Assembly: GCA_049287005.1 (NCBI GenBank)
Contig: JBAQEZ010000001.1
Location: forward strand, 2,204 to 66,203
Direction of reading: 5' to 3'
Source of the DNA: Candidatus Moraniibacteriota bacterium
GTDB lineage: Bacteria; Patescibacteriota; Minisyncoccia; Moranbacterales; UBA1568
Length of the DNA stretch: 64,000 nucleotides
Each line of letters begins with the position of its first letter. Position 1 is the stretch's first letter. Of this stretch, positions 10,855-50,126 are shown one piece after another. The translations under genes and the position numbers were made by a program. The notes under the pieces were generated by a model, which saw only the letters and a list, made by a program, of their open reading frames with translations, had not been told where the DNA came from and ran no database searches.

Positions 10855-12129
10855 TTATAGCTTACTCTCATAGTTGTTGGCCCAATATTGGACCCTCGCA
10901 GCATAATTTTTGCATGCCGCCACCCTGCCTGCATATGTTTCTTTCGGCTTGGATGTTCCACAATAATAAATCATCGACGCCGCCTTCTCCCCACCCTTAC
11001 TCGTCGCTCCTCCTGCGGCTAGCTTCAAAGCCATCCCCATGACTCCATCAGTAATGCTCCACGGATCAGCTGGGTTGTGCCCCGTTTTGGCCGCAATCGT
11101 AGCTTTCCAACCACTCCACGTGCTGGGAATAAATTGAGCTACCCCCATAGCCCCTCCATAACCCCCGCTTTTCGGAGCACAGGATACTTTTTTATCATTC
11201 AAACTATAGCCCAAGTCCTTCATGATCGTTTTGAATATAGGAATATCATAACTGTGCATCCGGGTATTCTTGTACGTGCAGCCGCCGGTAAAGCGCCCGA
11301 GGTTCGTTTCCACCACCAATTCTCCCAAAAGAAAATCCTTACGAACACCCGTAGCGTTCGCAGCGATTTTTGCGGCGTCCTGTATATCTTTGGCCGTGAT
11401 GCTTTCGCCCAAAAAAGATGACAAATCCTTCCGTAATTCCGCGAGCTTATCATTCAATTCCGCGATGGTCGCCTGCTGATTTTCGAGATCATCTTGCGTC
11501 TCTATTTTTTCCACCACTAGCACCTGCTTCTGCTTGTTCTTGATAGACAGCAATGCCGCATGATCCGCTTTGACATTCTCGAGAGAACGCTTCTCATCGG
11601 TGACTTTTCCCCGCATTTCACTGATATCGCGAATCACTTCCTGCATCTTTTCCTGCGTCGAAAACAATCCATCATTTTCCCGGAAAAAACCCATGAGATC
11701 ATTTCCGATCAAAATCACCTCAGGCAGCGGGACGTTACCATTGGCATACAGCTCTTGGATGAGCCCCGTCAATACATGCCGCTCCAGCACGAGTTGCTGC
11801 TCGAGGTTCGTAATCTCCTGCTCCTTCTGCCCTATGGTCTGTTCCGTTTGATTGAGTAGATTCTGCACCTTGAGGATCAGCTGCTGCGTGGACGTCAGTG
11901 AAGAATTGATCTGATTCAAATCTTGTTGCAAAGCATCCCCTTTCTTGATCGCGGACTTATATTTTTGCTCATATTTAGCTATTTCAGATTTTTGATCATC
12001 TATGCAGGCAGCGTCGCAATTATCCGACTGAGCCGAGACAAAGGCATGTTTTACCGGCACCACAAACAGAAGAGCCACAAAAACCCCTCCGAGGACAGCA
12101 ACAAATACTCTGCGTGTTATTTTTAACAT
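10855..12129 (-). CDS. Membrane-anchored coiled-coil protein with a C-terminal lytic murein transglycosylase (MltB-like) domain
   Basis: N-terminal TM helix, a long Q/L-rich coiled coil, and a GAMGVAQFIPSTW motif typical of lytic transglycosylases. Confidence 0.65.
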   Translation of the reverse strand: MLKITRRVFVAVLGGVFVALLFVVPVKHAFVSAQSDNCDAACIDDQKSEIAKYEQKYKSAIKKGDALQQDLNQINSSLTSTQQLILKVQNLLNQTEQTIGQKEQEITNLEQQLVLERHVLTGLIQELYANGNVPLPEVILIGNDLMGFFRENDGLFSTQEKMQEVIRDISEMRGKVTDEKRSLENVKADHAALLSIKNKQKQVLVVEKIETQDDLENQQATIAELNDKLAELRKDLSSFLGESITAKDIQDAAKIAANATGVRKDFLLGELVVETNLGRFTGGCTYKNTRMHSYDIPIFKTIMKDLGYSLNDKKVSCAPKSGGYGGAMGVAQFIPSTWSGWKATIAAKTGHNPADPWSITDGVMGMALKLAAGGATSKGGEKAASMIYYCGTSKPKETYAGRVAACKNYAARVQYWANNYESKL

Positions 12130-12200
12130 GTAGAAGCATTATACCATACGCCCTGCCGTCCTTTTTGATAAGCATATCGGATTCCCTCTAACGGGCAAAT

Positions 12201-17004: not shown

Positions 17005-17063
17005 AATTGGATATTCATTTTAGTAGTATATAAGGAAAGTATACCACGAACAATCCTCTCTTT

Positions 17064-30900: not shown

Positions 30901-30933
30901 TACTTTCTTCTATTATATCATATCAGGAGTATC

Positions 30934-33311: not shown

Positions 33312-35069
33312 ATGCTAAGAGGTATGGAAGAAACACTCTACAACATTCGTCACTCTTTGGCTCACTTGCTCGCCATCGCGGCTCTCGAGCATGATTCCAA
33401 GGCCAAACTCTCCGTCGGTCCCGTCACGGAGAACGGCTTCTATTATGATATCGATTTCAGTGAAGGCAAAGCGCCCACGCCAGAAGATCTGAAAGCCTTC
33501 GAAAAGACGATGCGCAAAATGATCAACAAGAAGCTACTCTTCGCGCGCCAGGAAGTCTCCCCTGAAGAAGCCCGTCAACATTTCGCGGGCAACCCCTACA
33601 AGATGGCTATCATCGATGATATCGAGCAAGCGGGGACTCCCGTCAGCCTCTACGCCACCGGGGATTTTATTGATTTGTGCGAAGGACGCCATGTAGACAA
33701 CACGAGCGAGATTGACGCCAAATGTTTCACGCTCACTCACCTGGCTGGCGCTTACTGGCGCGGCGATGAAAAAAACCCGATGCTCACCCGCGTATACGGT
33801 CTGGCTTTTGCGACCGCAGAGGAACTCAAAGCCTATCTTACCCAGCAAGAAGAAGCCAAAAAACGCGATCATCGGAGGATCGCCAAAGAACAAGACCTGC
33901 TCGTCTTTTCTGATCTCGTGGGTTCGGGTATGCCCATGTTCACTCCCAAGGGGAATATCATCCGCAATGCAATCATCGGTTTTTCACGCGAACTTAATAA
34001 TACCCTCGGCTTCGAGGAGGTGCACACGCCGAATATCAACAAAGCGGAACTTTTCAGGATATCCGGTCATTACGACAAATATAAGGAGGATATGCTCGTT
34101 GTACGATCACAGTATAGTGAGGAAGATTTTTTTCTGAAACCGATGAATTGCCCACAACATACGCAGATATATGCAGCACGTCCAAGAAGCTACCGTGATT
34201 TGCCTATTCGCTATTCTGATTTTGCCAACCTCTACCGTGATGAACGCCCCGGTGAACTCTCCGGACTTACTCGGCTGCGTTCGTTTGCTCAAGACGACGG
34301 GCACGTTTTCTGCATGGAAAGTCAGATAGAAGGAGAGATGACAAGCATACTCACCGCTATTGAAACGGCTCTTACGACATACAAGATTGACTATTGGATG
34401 CGCCTATCGCTCCGCGACCCAGAAAAGAAGGAAAAATATCTCGGCGATGACGATGTCTGGGAACGCTCACAGGCAATCATGCGTAAACTTCTGCAAGAAA
34501 AAAATATTACACACAAAGAGGCGGAAGGTGAAGCTGCCTTTTATGGTCCGAAAATCGATATTATGGCTGTTGACGCGCTCGGTAGAGAATGGCAGATTTC
34601 TACCGTGCAACTCGATTTCAATCAACCAAAACGGTTTGGACTGGTGTATACTGATAGTGATGGTACAGAAAAAACACCCGTGATGATTCATCGTGCGCTG
34701 ATCGGCTCACCGGATAGATTCATGGGAATCCTTATCGAACACTATGCTGGCGCTTTTCCGGTATGGCTGGCGCCGATCCAAGCGGTCGTCTTGCCCATCG
34801 GAGAGAACCATCAGGCCTTTGCAAAGGAAATAACGGACGCGCTCAAAGAAAAAAATATTCGTGTCGAACTCGATCTGGATAACGAGTCACTCGGCAAACG
34901 CGTCCGGAACGCCAAAATACAGAAAATCCCCTACCTTCTCATTATCGGAGACAAAGAAGTCGCGGCAAAAAATATCACTCTCGAACACCGGAGTGCGGGT
35001 TCGCTCGGTACCCAGACTCTGGCGGAGTGTATCGATATCTTCGCGCAAGCCATCACCTCCAAAAGCTAA
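33312..35069 (+). CDS. thrS: Threonyl-tRNA synthetase, lacking the N-terminal TGS domain
   Basis: Begins at the editing-domain HSLAH motif; class II catalytic core and a C-terminal anticodon-binding domain; ~581 aa. Confidence 0.92.
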   Translation: MLRGMEETLYNIRHSLAHLLAIAALEHDSKAKLSVGPVTENGFYYDIDFSEGKAPTPEDLKAFEKTMRKMINKKLLFARQEVSPEEARQHFAGNPYKMAIIDDIEQAGTPVSLYATGDFIDLCEGRHVDNTSEIDAKCFTLTHLAGAYWRGDEKNPMLTRVYGLAFATAEELKAYLTQQEEAKKRDHRRIAKEQDLLVFSDLVGSGMPMFTPKGNIIRNAIIGFSRELNNTLGFEEVHTPNINKAELFRISGHYDKYKEDMLVVRSQYSEEDFFLKPMNCPQHTQIYAARPRSYRDLPIRYSDFANLYRDERPGELSGLTRLRSFAQDDGHVFCMESQIEGEMTSILTAIETALTTYKIDYWMRLSLRDPEKKEKYLGDDDVWERSQAIMRKLLQEKNITHKEAEGEAAFYGPKIDIMAVDALGREWQISTVQLDFNQPKRFGLVYTDSDGTEKTPVMIHRALIGSPDRFMGILIEHYAGAFPVWLAPIQAVVLPIGENHQAFAKEITDALKEKNIRVELDLDNESLGKRVRNAKIQKIPYLLIIGDKEVAAKNITLEHRSAGSLGTQTLAECIDIFAQAITSKS

Positions 35070-35112
35070 CTTTACAACCGCAATCCTCTGTGGTATAAAA
35101 ACGGTAACAGTA

Positions 35113-35131
35113 AACGGTTCGCCGTTTTTTG
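35113..35131 (+). terminator. Intrinsic terminator after thrS
   Basis: AACGG-TTCG-CCGTT hairpin followed by TTTTTT. Confidence 0.65.
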
Positions 35132-35190
35132 TTAGGGGGGATTCGGGAACGTCCGGGTCCACAATAAAAAGTCTTGCAGGAGGTTTAACA

Positions 35191-35607
35191 ATGAATATGG
35201 CTTGCAGCTTCACACGTCACGGCCACCAAAACCCTATCATTCAGCCGACACACTACGCTCAGTCAGCGGAGGAACAGCTGATTCAATCAGAGGAACAGTC
35301 AACCGATGACCGTTACCCCAGTCCACAGGAGTTTGAGAGACTGTTGCAGGAGCACCTCAACGGCAAGCTCCGCAAGAACCGGGCTAACAAGGCCAAAAAG
35401 GCCGCTGGCGTACGTCGAGCCAAAATATTGGCTCAGATAGAGGGTCTGAAGCGTTCCGTGCGACACCGTCCGGACCAATGCGAATGCGTCCACACGCGCT
35501 CCGCGAGCTGCCAGTTCAACACACACGCCAACAAAGGACGGCTGAACCGGCGGGTGCTGATCACTCGTCCTTCCGGACAAGCAGCCCTCTGCTCTGGCTG
35601 CTGCTGA
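35191..35607 (+). CDS. Small basic Cys-rich hypothetical protein (C-terminus ...ALCSGCC) in a GC-rich islet
   Basis: Strong AGGAGG SD 7 nt upstream of the ATG; 139 aa; followed by its own terminator. Local GC content is noticeably higher than the flanks. Confidence 0.45.
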   Translation: MNMACSFTRHGHQNPIIQPTHYAQSAEEQLIQSEEQSTDDRYPSPQEFERLLQEHLNGKLRKNRANKAKKAAGVRRAKILAQIEGLKRSVRHRPDQCECVHTRSASCQFNTHANKGRLNRRVLITRPSGQAALCSGCC

Positions 35608-35639
35608 TACTCCGGGCGGCAACGCCACCCATCAAGAAT

Positions 35640-35677
35640 GCCCGAGCTCCTCTGGAGTCTCGGGCGCTTATTTTTTA
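35640..35677 (+). terminator. Intrinsic terminator after the Cys-rich small ORF
   Basis: GCCCGAG...CTCGGGC 7-bp stem followed by GCTTATTTTTTA. Confidence 0.65.
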
Positions 35678-35729
35678 TCACAAACAGCTCGCTGCCATCC
35701 CCAGCCGCATCATGCCACGATCCGCATAT

Positions 35730-38297
35730 TCATTCCAACACTCGCGCTGGCGCATTGAAACGGACCGATTGCCTCGCGTCACCTTCGTGGAAATGCTGGA
35801 AATAAAAGTGCTTCACTGCTTCGGTCATCAGGAAGTACCCACCCGCGAGAAGCAGGATGGTCCAGAACATGTGCGGCGTCGGATGAATGAACAAGAAAAT
35901 ATTTTCCCCCGCCGAGAAAAGCGGGAGCAGGAAAGCGAACAGAATGACCGAAAAAGAAAGCGCGACCAGAAGCACCGGCGGCACCTTCGATCGAAAAAAT
36001 GGCCGGCGTGTCCGCAAAGAAAATATAAGGACTATTTCCGTCACGATATTGAAAAGAAACCAAGAGGTCTGGAGCGTCGCCGGAGAGACATTGTAAAATT
36101 TTCCGAAAAGGATGAAATCGAAGCTCGAATTGACGACTCCCAGAATCATCGTCATCAGCACGATCGAGTGCACCTGATAATTTCTCGGTTTTTGCAGCTC
36201 TTCCGTATCCACCGTGTCCGTCGCGATGGCAATCATGGGAAAGTCTGCCAAGAGATCCAAAAGAAGTATCTGCACCGGCAGCAAGGGTACGAACGGCAGA
36301 AACAGCGATGCCAAGGCGACTGAATAGAAATTCCCGAAATTGGCTGTCAACGTGATCCTCAGGTACTTCAGGATGTTGGCGAAAATAACCCGCCCCTCTT
36401 TGATGCCATCAATCACGGTATCAAGGCTCCGCTGCAGCAGAACGACATCGGCAGCTCCTCTGGCGACATCCGAAGCCCCCTGCACCACCAACCCGACGTT
36501 CGCCAATCGAAGGGCGGGCGCGTCATTGATCCCTTCGCCCAGAAATCCCACCTCGTGTTTTTCCTGGAGGATTTTGATGATCTCGTACTTCTCTCTCGGG
36601 GAAATTCTGGCAAAGACAGTATGAGAAAAAATGACTCGTTTTTTGTCCCCGTACGGCATCTCGGCGAGATCTTTCCCGGTGATCACATCCTCTGGTCGCT
36701 TGAGCAATCCGACCGCATAGCCCACGGCGCCGGCTACTTCCGGACTATCTCCCGTCAAAATCTTCACCTGTACCTGGAGCGCCCTTGCTTTCTCGAGAGT
36801 TTCTTTGGCCGTATTCTTCAATGGATCCGCGAAGGCAATCAACCCGACAAACTCCAGCTGTTGCTCTTCATAGAGAGTGTATTTTTGTTTCGCCGTAAAC
36901 GATCTGCGCGCAACGGCGAGCACGCGGTCCCCCTCCGTCCCTTTTCCTTTCATCCACTCAAGTAGCTTTTGCACCGTGAAAGAATCCACATTCTTCGAAA
37001 GCCGCAAGACTTCTTCCGGTGCGCCGCGTACGATGATCTCCCTTTTCCCAGTCGCCATCTCTATGAGTACGCTGTTGCGCCTCCGCTCCGGATCAAAAGG
37101 GATGTTATCAATACGCCGCATGTTTCGCACGGCACCGTGTCCTGCGGAGGAAAGTTTCTGCCACAAGGCCAGATCGAAAGCGTCATGCAATTTCCCTCGG
37201 CGGGTAGGGTCTGCCAGAGAGGCTGCCGCAGCCAATTCGAGGCAGAGGTCCGTGTCTCCTGCCTTGATAGCGCTCACGGATAACATATTTTCTGTCAGCG
37301 TCCCCGTTTTGTCAGTACAGAGAATTTCGATGCTCCCCAGATCCTCGATAGCCGAAAGGCGTTTCATGATCACTTTTTTCTGAGCCAGACGCAGCGCTCC
37401 GCGTGAGAGCGCAACCGTCACGATGACCGGCAGCGCCTCCGGGATAACCGATACGGCTAATACCAAGGAAAAAATCAGCAGCTCTGTCACGTCAACGCTA
37501 TCACCCTTGATGAATATATTGGCCACAAAAATGAGCGTCAGGGTCAAAAGCACAAATTTCAGAATAAACCGGCTGAATTGGGCGATGTTTCTTTCGAATC
37601 CCGTCTCATGCTTGCTTTCCGTCGTCAGCGTTGCGATATCGCTGAGTGCCGTGTCTTTACCGGTAGCGAAGACGACTCCTTCTCCGCGGCCAGCCGTCAC
37701 GATGGTCCCGGCAAAACCGATGTTCTCCGCTTCAAACATTTCCGTCGGCGGCCTAAGCGCCGTGGCTGCTTTCTTGGACACGGCCACTGACTCGCCTGTC
37801 ATGACACTTTCATCCAGCTGCAGTCCGAAAGAGGCGATGAAACGCATATCAGCCGACAAGCGATCGCCTGCCTCCACCAGGACAACCTCCCCCGGGACGA
37901 TGACCTCGCTTTCGATGAGCATTTCGCTGCCGCCACGACGTACGCGGGTATGCGTGACGAGATATCGCTTGAGCGATTGTGCCGCTTTTTCTCCATGATA
38001 TTCCTGATATATTTCCAAACCGACATTGATGGCGATAAAAAGAAGGATCAGCCCCCCTCCCAAATGATCGCCGAGGCCATACGAAAGAGCGGAAGCACCC
38101 AAAAGAAGATACAAAAAAGAAGAGCGTGTCCGCCGCTTCAGCATCTCCATGAGAGAAAAAGTCTCCTCCGCCAGTTTATTTCCTCCCAAGCGGCGGAGCC
38201 GCTCTTCTGCTATTTCCAAAGCAAGGCCTTTCTCCGAACTTTGAAGCTCCGCAAAGACTTGCGCCACGTCTTCTGAAGATATTTTTTTCCACTCCAT
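35730..38297 (-). CDS. P-type cation-transporting ATPase (type II, Ca2+/Mg2+-like)
   Basis: CTDKTGTLTEN phosphorylation motif, TGDSPEVA and GEGINDAPAL motifs, 10 TM segments; 855 aa. Confidence 0.9.
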   Translation of the reverse strand: MEWKKISSEDVAQVFAELQSSEKGLALEIAEERLRRLGGNKLAEETFSLMEMLKRRTRSSFLYLLLGASALSYGLGDHLGGGLILLFIAINVGLEIYQEYHGEKAAQSLKRYLVTHTRVRRGGSEMLIESEVIVPGEVVLVEAGDRLSADMRFIASFGLQLDESVMTGESVAVSKKAATALRPPTEMFEAENIGFAGTIVTAGRGEGVVFATGKDTALSDIATLTTESKHETGFERNIAQFSRFILKFVLLTLTLIFVANIFIKGDSVDVTELLIFSLVLAVSVIPEALPVIVTVALSRGALRLAQKKVIMKRLSAIEDLGSIEILCTDKTGTLTENMLSVSAIKAGDTDLCLELAAAASLADPTRRGKLHDAFDLALWQKLSSAGHGAVRNMRRIDNIPFDPERRRNSVLIEMATGKREIIVRGAPEEVLRLSKNVDSFTVQKLLEWMKGKGTEGDRVLAVARRSFTAKQKYTLYEEQQLEFVGLIAFADPLKNTAKETLEKARALQVQVKILTGDSPEVAGAVGYAVGLLKRPEDVITGKDLAEMPYGDKKRVIFSHTVFARISPREKYEIIKILQEKHEVGFLGEGINDAPALRLANVGLVVQGASDVARGAADVVLLQRSLDTVIDGIKEGRVIFANILKYLRITLTANFGNFYSVALASLFLPFVPLLPVQILLLDLLADFPMIAIATDTVDTEELQKPRNYQVHSIVLMTMILGVVNSSFDFILFGKFYNVSPATLQTSWFLFNIVTEIVLIFSLRTRRPFFRSKVPPVLLVALSFSVILFAFLLPLFSAGENIFLFIHPTPHMFWTILLLAGGYFLMTEAVKHFYFQHFHEGDARQSVRFNAPARVLE

Positions 38298-38311: not shown

Positions 38312-38647
38312 CTACTCTGCGTTTGCCAAACGACGAGACAGCGCCAGCATCGCTTCAAAGTCGTCTTCTGCCGCTCCCTTGTTCTTCTTTTCGTGCCCAC
38401 ATTTTTGACAGCAATGCGTCAGAACATATCCCGTTCCTTCCTGTCTGAGAGCTATCGGTTCCATCAAACCTCCACAATCCGCCAAACGATCTCCCGGAGC
38501 GATGTCCACGTGCTTGCTCCACAGGCACTGCGCGCAATGATTCGTATAGCCATTCCCTACCATCGTTGCTCCGCAATGTTCACACAAAAAATCCTCCTCC
38601 CGTCGCTGAAACTTTTTCTCTGGTTTTTTTTCTTGCGATTGGGACAT
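38312..38647 (-). CDS. RNHCP-domain zinc-ribbon protein
   Basis: FLCEHCG...TNHCAQCLWSKHVD...CQKCGH: the Cys/His pattern matches the RNHCP family as I recall it. Confidence 0.5.
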   Translation of the reverse strand: MSQSQEKKPEKKFQRREEDFLCEHCGATMVGNGYTNHCAQCLWSKHVDIAPGDRLADCGGLMEPIALRQEGTGYVLTHCCQKCGHEKKNKGAAEDDFEAMLALSRRLANAE

Positions 38648-38799
38648 GCCGAAAAGAATAGGAGATATTTGATGCCTGCATTATATCAAAAATTCTCTCT
38701 CTAAGCGAAAAGTAACCCTCAAAAAAATACTTGCACTTCTCATTCTTAGCCCCCGGTTGGGAGGCCTGGCAGTAGAACGAAAGGAATTCCTCTCTTGTA

Positions 38800-40140
38800 T
38801 CACTTCTTTCCGGAAAGAATCGAGTTGATAACATCCTCATCCTGGCACGAATACTTCCTGCTCGCGGAATAAAAACGTTTTTTTGGTCCCTGACAGCCTC
38901 CGTTGTCCTTGTAGAGCGTTGCCAAGAGAGGCATCATGAAGCCTGTCCCTCGAGCCGTGAACGACGCATAGAGGTTACGGAGTATCGTTGCACGCTGCGG
39001 TTTGTCCATCCGCGTGAAAACACTCATGTCATCGCCCAGCTTACCGCTCCAATCGAGGTGCACGAAAACGTTGTTGGCCCGACTGGAAAAATCAGGATGC
39101 CACAAAAGCGCCCAACACCAGTCCCCTGGTTTCTGCCACCAGCGCGAAAAACACGGCCCGTTCTCGATACCGCCATCCTCCCCAATGCCCACTCCGCCTT
39201 CGATATAATCAAAGAGACGCAAATATCGCTCATCGATAATATCGTTGGTCTGCGCGCCGATGACAATTTTCATGCCGCGAAAATCAGCATACTCGCGCAT
39301 ATCCTGGATAACTTGCGGCATCATGCTCTCTGTCAGGTCGCCCGCATCCTGATAGAATACTTCTCCGAAAAGAAAACTCTGTACGCCGATATCCATGGCT
39401 TGTTCCGCAATGTACTGTACGTATCTACGGTATTCCTCCTTGCCGAGCGATGGCTTGCAGGTATGCTCTCCCCAGTAATTTTTGCTCCCGCTGCGGCACA
39501 TATCGCTGAAATTGAAATCGCGCTGCTCAGCCGGATACGCATACCGCGCCCGCGTATCGATCGCTTCCGCTATGAACATGCCGTACACCGTGTTGGGCTT
39601 GGTCACTTGCTTCTCTATTTTTCTAGCCAAGGCGAAATCCGGCGGACGAAGCCATGTTTCCAAAGCGCGATGCAGGTAATAACACTGTGAACGGTTGACC
39701 AAAGCTATAGAACTATTCACATCTCCGCCGTATCCTGAGAGAAAGCCGTCCGCCACGCAGCCCTGTTTTTTCATCCGCTCCATGGACGGTGGCGGAGGAG
39801 GAGGGAGGGTGGAGAGTTCTGGCTCTCCCTCTTTTTGCGGGATATTCGACTCATCAAGCGTCGGCTTCTCATCTACCCAATCGGAGAGCGGCGGCATAGG
39901 GATGGCCTCTGGCGGCGCCAGAGCGATTTCGTTGTTTGTATGAGAAAAAGGCGATAAGAAATAGAAGCCGCTTATGACAACCAGCGTCAGCGGAGCTGAG
40001 AAGAAAAGATGTTTTTCCCGGAACTTCTTTTTGCGTTCCAGCGGATAGAGTGGAAGCATAATGGTTTTTAAAGGGTACTCAGTAGTATACACCTCCGCGT
40101 CCAAAGAGAAAACCCTCACTTTACGGAATAAATTCAACAA
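38800..40140 (-). CDS. Hypothetical N-terminally anchored extracytoplasmic protein with a proline-rich linker
   Basis: TM helix (LTLVVISGFYFL) and a PPPPPP linker; no recognisable catalytic motif. Confidence 0.45.
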   Translation of the reverse strand: MLNLFRKVRVFSLDAEVYTTEYPLKTIMLPLYPLERKKKFREKHLFFSAPLTLVVISGFYFLSPFSHTNNEIALAPPEAIPMPPLSDWVDEKPTLDESNIPQKEGEPELSTLPPPPPPSMERMKKQGCVADGFLSGYGGDVNSSIALVNRSQCYYLHRALETWLRPPDFALARKIEKQVTKPNTVYGMFIAEAIDTRARYAYPAEQRDFNFSDMCRSGSKNYWGEHTCKPSLGKEEYRRYVQYIAEQAMDIGVQSFLFGEVFYQDAGDLTESMMPQVIQDMREYADFRGMKIVIGAQTNDIIDERYLRLFDYIEGGVGIGEDGGIENGPCFSRWWQKPGDWCWALLWHPDFSSRANNVFVHLDWSGKLGDDMSVFTRMDKPQRATILRNLYASFTARGTGFMMPLLATLYKDNGGCQGPKKRFYSASRKYSCQDEDVINSILSGKK

Positions 40141-40245
40141 ATAACCCCCCCCCTCTCCGTACTACCAAAAACCTTTTCTCACAAGCAACCTCCACGGAGG
40201 TCATTCGTTCGTGAAGCGATCGAACTTCTTTTATGAAATTTTTTT

Positions 40246-49868: not shown

Positions 49869-49922
49869 GGCTGGTTGGAAAGTTCGTTACCAACCAGCAA
49901 CCACCAGCGAGGAGATTATAGC

Positions 49923-50126
49923 ATGCAGACACAAACCCTGGAACGGCACGCGCTTGTAGCCTTCGTTTTTCTGGTCGCAATGATTTACACCATTGCCTCG
50001 GCAATCAGTGCCACCGGTGGCGGCGATACCTTCGCCAGCGGTCATTGGGCCAACTGGCTTTTCACGAAGGTTCTCGCGGCACACGATTTTTTTTGGTGCT
50101 GCGTAGCCCCAGGGCTGCCTGGCTAG
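49923..50126 (+). CDS. Small hydrophobic peptide ORF (67 aa), first ORF of the mini-operon
   Basis: AGGAG SD 8 nt upstream of the ATG; predicted TM segment ALVAFVFLVAMIYTIASAI; ends in FFWCCVAPGLPG. Confidence 0.4.
   Translation: MQTQTLERHALVAFVFLVAMIYTIASAISATGGGDTFASGHWANWLFTKVLAAHDFFWCCVAPGLPG

Follow-up and report, generated by a model that had tools for sequence, protein, structure and literature searches.

We analyzed a stretch of 64,000 nt (64 kb, hereafter the window) from contig JBAQEZ010000001.1 of a Candidatus Moraniibacteriota bacterium, and in particular the open reading frame (ORF) at 35191-35607 of the + strand, whose gene and protein are called X throughout; coordinates are those of the whole window unless a homologous locus is named. 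Taken together, the data make it likely that X, with its signals, forms a complete transcription unit for a small protein specific to its lineage, and that this unit has been inherited vertically within a narrow, Paceibacterota-like clade of Patescibacteria. A preliminary description of this DNA had correctly recognized a self-contained + strand gene with its own Shine-Dalgarno (SD) sequence and terminator, but had taken it for a horizontally acquired mini-cassette, an origin that its conserved junction, its host-like composition at third codon positions and the lack of repeats and of mobile-element homologues speak against. X runs from the ATG at 35191 to the TGA at 35605-35607 (417 nt including the stop codon) and encodes 138 aa rather than the 139 first reported.

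Vertical inheritance is indicated by gene order. The window shows the succession DUF975, tRNA-Gly(CCC), DUF4012, thrS (33312-35069, + strand, with its TAA stop at 35067-35069), X, a P-type cation ATPase gene on the - strand (35730-38297, convergent toward X from the right and ending at 35730) and an RNHCP-domain gene, also on the - strand. X likewise lies 3' of DUF4012-thrS in L082/L083, L085, L086 and L087, and the ThrRS proteins of these X-bearing lineages are only 54-57% identical to each other. Locus L082 (GCA_964408635.1) reads DUF4012, thrS, X, a gene for an SNase-domain protein (-) and then an ATPase gene (-) whose product is 58% identical to that of the window, while L086 reads DUF975 (-), tRNA-Gly(CCC) (-), DUF4012, thrS, X and RNHCP (-). 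Every locus long enough to judge therefore shares the order DUF975, tRNA-Gly, DUF4012, thrS, X, variable cargo, RNHCP. The cargo between X and RNHCP consists of the ATPase gene in the window (35730-38297, -), of the SNase-domain gene plus the ATPase gene in L082 (2826-3987), and of nothing in L086 (6306-6751). Judged from these gene orders, the indel-prone part of the locus is the ATPase/SNase segment downstream, X being the constant element.

A recent horizontal acquisition, in which a foreign GC-rich gene with a foreign-style SD and terminators was inserted between thrS and the ATPase gene, would account for a local GC (guanine plus cytosine) peak, for a strong SD within an SD-poor genome, for a codon-pattern score in the low tail of the host, and for the absence of X from the GTDB relatives L001-L004, whose ThrRS identity is similar. 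The last observation is offset by the fact that L001-L004 lack the entire synteny rather than X alone. Moreover, X occupies the same junction in three other lineages, with ThrRS of only 54-57% identity, and its predicted promoter is of the extended -10 type that is enriched in the host's own sequence (see below). The flanks of X contain no meaningful repeats and no integrase, transposase or other mobility genes, the neighbours being housekeeping genes, and searches of viral contigs (made twice), phage records and plasmid records found no relatives of X. The surrounding window is core chromosome of 50% GC, carrying parAB, folD, glmS, leuS, recA, ftsK, rpoBC, the ATP synthase genes, metG, tgt, recO and ileS. 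We consider the transfer scenario largely refuted already and quite improbable.

The composition of X agrees with a resident origin. The islet does have a higher GC content than its neighbours, as had been noted: the ORF has 57.1% GC, and at the peak over 300 nt the value is 0.60-0.61, compared with a mean of 0.503 (standard deviation 0.046) for the window, that is a z of about 2.1 and a place in the top 0.7% of 300-nt windows. Four equal peaks exist elsewhere, at about 16551, 20401, 37651 and 55851, within the ordinary genes ftsK, rpoC, the ATPase gene and tgt. GC at third codon positions (GC3) is 0.65 in X, inside the host range of 0.38-0.69, and the excess is located at second positions (GC2 of 0.46-0.47 versus 0.38 in the host) because of the content of Ala, Arg, Cys, Gly, Pro, Ser and Thr. 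The same excess is seen in relatives, X exceeding its surroundings by 4-8 GC points in L082, L086 and L087. The high GC of X is a product of its amino-acid composition and does not point to a foreign origin. In a 3-periodic Markov model trained on the host, frame +0 scored best of the six frames at X; its value ranks at the 98th percentile among wrong frames and near the 8th percentile among the genes of the host.

Homologues of X are very few. A word-indexed protein search with the single X sequence gave no match, while an exhaustive phmmer scan of 1.84 billion representative proteins revealed two homologues, P0001 (E = 1.3e-18) and P0002 (E = 3.5e-7). Further members came from a profile search, from a metagenome scan and from cluster look-ups, namely, among the matches listed, P0003 to P0007 and the locus L084; the protein searches covered 1.84 billion and 5.8 billion entries. 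Neither X nor the ThrRS of the window has an identical entry in the large protein collection. The matches listed fall into three subgroups, all unnamed, window X being one of them. Six family loci include the leader (L082-L087), L081 is truncated at its 5' side, and L001-L080 are loci fetched by means of ThrRS. The best ThrRS match among 185,579 GTDB species representatives had 63% identity and came from metagenome-assembled genomes of Candidatus Paceibacterota; none of the 80 ThrRS-fetched GTDB loci contained X or islet DNA. Queries with X and with the family alignment against Pfam, NCBIfam, PHROGs, PADLOC and PDB sequences returned nothing above noise, in line with the earlier statement that no domain is recognizable. 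The alternative, raised beforehand, that homology would identify a known ribosomal or nucleoid protein received a noise match only (S3ae, E = 0.035, 13 bits versus a cut-off of 198), with Pfam empty.

We also asked which strand is coding, since the preliminary description had pointed to overlapping antisense ORFs of 82-109 aa. These are present on the - strand, at 35299-35628 (109 aa) and 35433-35681 (82 aa). The length of the X ORF alone is within chance, as the window holds about 50 spurious ORFs of at least 150 aa, and X is judged real because it is conserved, not because of its length. Frame +0 is the sole frame open in 6/6 homologous loci, whereas the other five frames, including both antisense ORF frames, have stops in every family member. 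Between subgroups, the proportion of non-synonymous differences (pN) is 0.27-0.45 and that of synonymous differences (pS) 0.65-0.86, and for the close pair L081/L084 the ratio of the corresponding rates (dN/dS) is 0.2. In the close trio of sequences, variable sites are distributed as 8/5/21 over the three codon positions, a third-position excess with p = 0.0017. These results show that the + strand ORF of X is protein-coding and under purifying selection.

One could nevertheless imagine that one of the antisense ORFs (109 or 82 aa) is what is really expressed, or that the region yields a structured non-coding RNA, a reading that would account for the high GC. Long antisense ORFs do exist, and frame -0, that of the 109-aa ORF, has just 1-3 stops per member; yet all antisense frames are broken by stops in every locus, and frame -0 shows 4 synonymous versus 27 non-synonymous variable codons. 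At the gathering threshold, the Rfam scan of the window returned two tRNAs only and no covariance-model match to the leader (35100-35190); at E up to 10, the region 35000-35800 and the leader within it gave sub-threshold noise. A possible hint of RNA-level constraint came from L082 2570-2775 and L085 648-853, which differ at 2 positions in about 205 nt covering the last 46 codons, the 3' untranslated region and the terminator. In the other subgroup (L081, L084, L086) and in between-subgroup pairs, however, synonymous change is plentiful in the same 3' part, and RNA-level constraint on the 3' half of X was rejected on this ground. Outside the near-identical tract, 15-25% of sites differ between L082 and L085: the N-terminal two-thirds of X have a pS of 0.35 and a pN of 0.26, and the 3' ends of thrS differ at about 15%. 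This pattern is probably that of a mosaic gene produced through a recombination tract, which is likelier than RNA-level constraint. An antisense or purely RNA product is, in our judgement, hardly to be expected.

The reading of X as a protein-coding resident is complemented by a set of conserved expression signals. A -35-like box, TTTACA, lies at 35071-35076 (+), 2 nt past the thrS stop codon as read from the sequence, and an extended -10 box, TGGTATAAA, lies at 35091-35099 (+); every homologous locus has it in the form TGGTATACA, TGGTATACC or TAGTATAAA. In L082, L084, L085, L086 and L087 the arrangement is TTGnnn, a 17-nt spacer and then (TG)nTATAAA, TATACA or TATACC. With up to 1 mismatch allowed, TGGTATAAT is overrepresented in the window, 15 sites being present against 6.6 expected and 0/100 shuffles reaching 15. 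Its sites, among them, on the - strand, 12138-12146, 30912-30920, 17038-17046, 38680-38688 and 49915-49923, lie 9-35 nt 5' of several gene starts, and two are just 9-11 nt before an ATG (e.g., 9 nt before the ATG at 12129). The extended -10 TGGTATAAT is therefore probably the host's own promoter type, many messages being probably leaderless or short-leadered, with which the near absence of SD sequences in the genome fits. From the conserved sequence, X transcription would start at an extended -10 promoter of the sigma-70 type right behind the thrS stop.

A hairpin with a U-run, hairpin 1, follows at 35106-35135 (+), found by terminator scan and folding, with a core stem-loop at 35112-35127 (AAACGG-TTCG-CCGTTT); its folding energy is -4.7 kcal/mol for the core and -9.6 kcal/mol with the A/U extension 35106-35135. 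It lies about 7-30 nt 3' of the inferred transcription start. The preliminary description had X bracketed by two intrinsic terminators, and within a few bases both hairpins with their U-runs are indeed there, each a GC-containing hairpin with the U-run directly behind. The upstream one, however, lies downstream of the conserved predicted promoter of X and thus appears to be part of the X leader. L082, L085, L084 and L087 likewise have a hairpin and U-run, equally far from the -10 box and with different stem sequences. In the window and in L082/L085, hairpin 1 is also the sole candidate terminator for thrS. In L086 and L087 a strong predicted terminator of thrS lies about 600 bp upstream, and X is still preceded by the promoter-hairpin-SD module, whose hairpin 1 is degraded in L086 but intact in L087 and L084. 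According to this arrangement, the first ~30 nt of the transcript would form a hairpin and U-run that also terminate thrS, and X expression would need read-through or escape at hairpin 1, which could act as a constitutive attenuator or a 5' stabiliser.

Next in the leader would come hairpin 2, an A-rich stretch and a strong SD. Hairpin 2 (35139-35160, +), taken from the RNAalifold consensus, has a 9-bp stem, GGAUUCGGG/UCCGGGUCC, and the loop AACG. In 5 sequences, 95% of its cells are paired, with 2 compensatory pairs, and the pairing collapses when the partner is slid. Its motif YCGGNAACRYCCGRG has a single occurrence in the window at 0 mismatches and is found in 6/6 leader-bearing loci, while it is lacking from the 81 others that were fetched (L001-L080 and L081, which is truncated on its 5' side), which makes it family-specific. 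Two regulatory candidates were rejected here. As a mimic of the tRNA-Thr anticodon arm, similar to the E. coli thrS operator, hairpin 2 fails on inspection since the loops AACG, AACA and CAACGC share no anticodon-like NGU triplet; sequestration of the SD by the CCUCC of the L082 leader is not conserved, the window having GGGGGG there.

The SD itself, AGGAGG at 35178-35183 (+), stands 7 nt before the ATG at 35191, and all homologues have GGAGG or AAGGAG 7-9 nt before the ATG. It had been called unusual for this window, and counts bear this out: 0/36 long window ORFs have a 5-mer SD core at the first start codon, and 3/36 have a 4-mer, versus a 12% random expectation. A few other genes of the window may be SD-led. 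The SD would give X efficient SD-dependent initiation in a genome mostly without SD. At the other end, the predicted intrinsic terminator of X (35640-35677, +) consists of a stem-loop at 35640-35665 (11 bp, one bulge), followed by GCTTATTTTTTA with a T-run at 35671-35676; it folds at -18.9 to -20.4 kcal/mol on the + strand, with a comparable hairpin on the - strand. A simple terminator scanner missed the 35640-35665 hairpin owing to the bulge. Homologous loci have a strong hairpin and T-run 25-45 nt past the X stop. In the window, the terminator is probably bidirectional, to judge by its two-stranded fold, and would serve the convergent ATPase gene too.

The protein X (pI 9.8) has 7 Cys and contains RKNRANKAKKAAGVRRAK, the peptide VLITRPSGQAALCSGCC and, as first described, the C-terminal cysteines CxC...C...CSGCC. 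Three regions can be distinguished. The N-terminal motif (about residues 1-20), M-x(2,3)-A-S-C-F-x-x-G-S-x-G-x-Q-I-P-[IL]-D in alignments, is modelled by AlphaFold2 as a beta-hairpin with a predicted local distance difference test score (pLDDT) of 57-71. It is followed by a long charged helix (about 25-91, AlphaFold2 pLDDT 84-94), which has a 20-residue indel and is variable in sequence and charge. The 46-residue Cys-rich domain (93-138), with the pattern R-x-x-Q-C-x-C-x(4)-S-x-x-C ... [DN]-K-G-x-L-N-x-x-[VI]-x-I-T-R ... C-x-G-x-C, is constrained more than any other part, its pN between subgroups being 0.27-0.35; five of its cysteines (C97, C99, C107, C134 and C138) are invariant. X is probably cytoplasmic because it has no hydrophobic segment. 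The basic character assigned to X holds for the window protein, while in the family the pI ranges from 6.9 to 9.8, implying that nucleic-acid binding by a basic helix is not a family trait. Of the two binding activities first suggested, metal binding stays plausible: our best guess, at roughly even chances, is that the five invariant cysteines and the N-terminal one bind metal, the site being most likely a structural Zn site and less so a Fe-S cluster. Regulation or partner binding via the Cys domain is the most likely role class for X.

Several points weigh against the overall interpretation of X as a complete inherited unit for a putative metal-binding protein. L001-L004 have neither X nor the synteny, and a gain of X at the base of the clade may be of any age. 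The codon-pattern score of X is in the low tail of host genes, yet inside the host distribution. A terminator-like hairpin predicted about 7 nt past the inferred start would be unusual as a design, and hairpin 1 may be no more than the terminator of the upstream gene. With just three divergent subgroups, covariation and conservation statistics are thin, and the values of hairpin 2 were reached by 11 to 141 of 500 shuffles, depending on the measure. As for the protein, AlphaFold2 leaves the Cys domain unmodelled (pLDDT <50 in two runs, with window X first and with P0002 first), homology searches provided no backing for metal binding, and the spacing C-x-C-x7-C ... C-x-G-x-C is unlike the canonical zinc ribbon with its two CxxC/CPxC knuckles.

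Since X stays behind thrS while the cargo switches between ATPase, SNase plus ATPase and nothing, we considered that the adjacency might reflect function, X being a zinc-handling partner of ThrRS or regulating the expression or activity of thrS. ThrRS belongs to the zinc enzymes, as exemplified by that of E. coli, and the five invariant Cys would fit Zn binding; in addition, the X promoter abuts the thrS stop and hairpin 1 is common to both genes. On the contrary, adjacency in one clade is equally explained by plain synteny, as DUF975, tRNA-Gly and DUF4012 are conserved too. In L086 and L087, thrS and X are about 600 bp apart, with a separate thrS terminator and another small ORF in between, and most Patescibacteria ThrRS genes have no X neighbour. 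Functional coupling to ThrRS is improbable. The same low expectation applies to a more elaborate proposal, in which X would be a metalloprotein specific to the clade, acting together with ThrRS or regulating its own production. Hairpin 2 would then be a family-specific operator, and the strong SD would be an exception made on purpose within translation that is otherwise mostly SD-independent and in part leaderless. Other SD-poor phyla provide a parallel of logic rather than of sequence, a few of their genes being autoregulated in an SD-dependent way.

The C-terminal cluster ending in CSGCC also raised the question of whether X could be the precursor of a ribosomally synthesized and post-translationally modified peptide, similar to SCIFF or ranthipeptide precursors, with a long leader and a Cys-rich core (six Cys in 42 residues). 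The conserved N-terminal motif could serve as a recognition sequence and the C-terminus is unstructured in AlphaFold2. Nevertheless, no radical-SAM enzyme, cyclodehydratase, lanthipeptide synthetase or dedicated exporter was found in the 64-kb window or in the homologous loci L082, L086 and L087, and the precursor families of NCBIfam and Pfam gave no match even at E up to 10. Conservation is reversed with respect to most precursors, the putative core being most conserved and the leader and linker variable, and the conserved DKGxLNxxVxITR stretch suggests a folded domain. A precursor role for X is very hard to defend.

X can be compared with several known systems. Like zinc ribbons and DksA/TraR-like proteins, X is small, with a long helix followed by a compact C-terminal region of invariant Cys and no transmembrane segment; unlike them, it has no Pfam or NCBIfam match and lacks the two CxxC knuckles, and in contrast to DksA/TraR-like proteins it has a single helix rather than a coiled-coil hairpin (AlphaFold2), its metal binding being only putative. 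With SCIFF/ranthipeptide precursors and metallothioneins (SmtA/BmtA) it shares the clustering of C-terminal Cys with CxC and CC dipeptides. X differs from SCIFF in having no nearby maturase or model match and in its length (138 versus about 45 aa). The Cys content of metallothioneins is far above 5%, which is that of X, and the non-Cys residues of the X domain are strongly conserved. The infC-rpmI-rplT genes (IF3, L35, L20), which lie behind thrS in many bacteria, resemble X in combining a gene for a small basic protein with leader RNA structure and translational signals; X has no similarity to IF3, L35 or L20 models, is Cys-rich, and its basic character is not family-wide. Unknown families make up 7.7% +/- 2.9 of the Patescibacteria gene set (PMC10849945). 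X is similar to the Patescibacteria families of the FESNov type by lacking known homology and by its conserved context, purifying selection and restriction to uncultivated taxa. It differs from them by a predicted cytoplasmic location, being neither membrane-bound nor secreted, and by being far rarer (three subgroups and fewer than 10 distinct sequences in 15 billion proteins, among the matches listed).

Some further features of these loci were observed. The P0001-type lineage has about 600 bp between thrS and X, including the terminator of thrS itself. This spacer contains an inverted repeat with 38-nt arms (L086 5383-5474, L087 3696-3904 and L084 314-481), which in L087 and L084 has an extra 131-nt insert, itself palindromic, as well as a conserved Pro/Ser-rich ORF of 55-59 aa (MPHDEHQPPSDQ...). 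By its sequence, the spacer resembles a small insertion element able to form a hairpin, accompanied by another orphan mini-gene. In the window, the next conserved neighbour beyond the ATPase gene is the RNHCP-domain protein (38312-38647, -, 111 aa, several CxxC pairs), a second small Cys-rich protein at the locus that is unrelated to X in sequence. Farther on, a run of nine G at 40145-40153 (-) is located 4 nt 5' of the TTG start at 40140 of a 446-aa ORF (38800-40140, -) with no Pfam match; this homopolymer could alter the expression of the ORF via slippage.

In conclusion, X is an orphan gene of an ordinary kind, unknown families being common in Patescibacteria, and its expression signals form a tidy unit. 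The practical value of the analysis is a correction, as a GC-rich, SD-led and terminator-bracketed ORF that looks foreign is an old resident. A modest interest lies in the conserved strong SD within an SD-poor genome, in the family-specific hairpin 2, in the promoter-proximal terminator shared with thrS and in the set of cysteines. Should the leader hairpin and the rare SD turn out to be regulatory, the locus would offer a compact model of how the translation of a single gene is controlled in a mostly SD-free genome; should they not, X would count as an ordinary hypothetical protein. If X were indeed a metalloprotein coupled to ThrRS or controlling itself, it would be a handle on the use of the anti-SD in Patescibacteria. 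In either case, X adds one very rare orphan family under purifying selection to the pool of unknown Patescibacteria genes, one for which promoter, leader, SD and terminator are defined and whose five invariant cysteines can be mutated.

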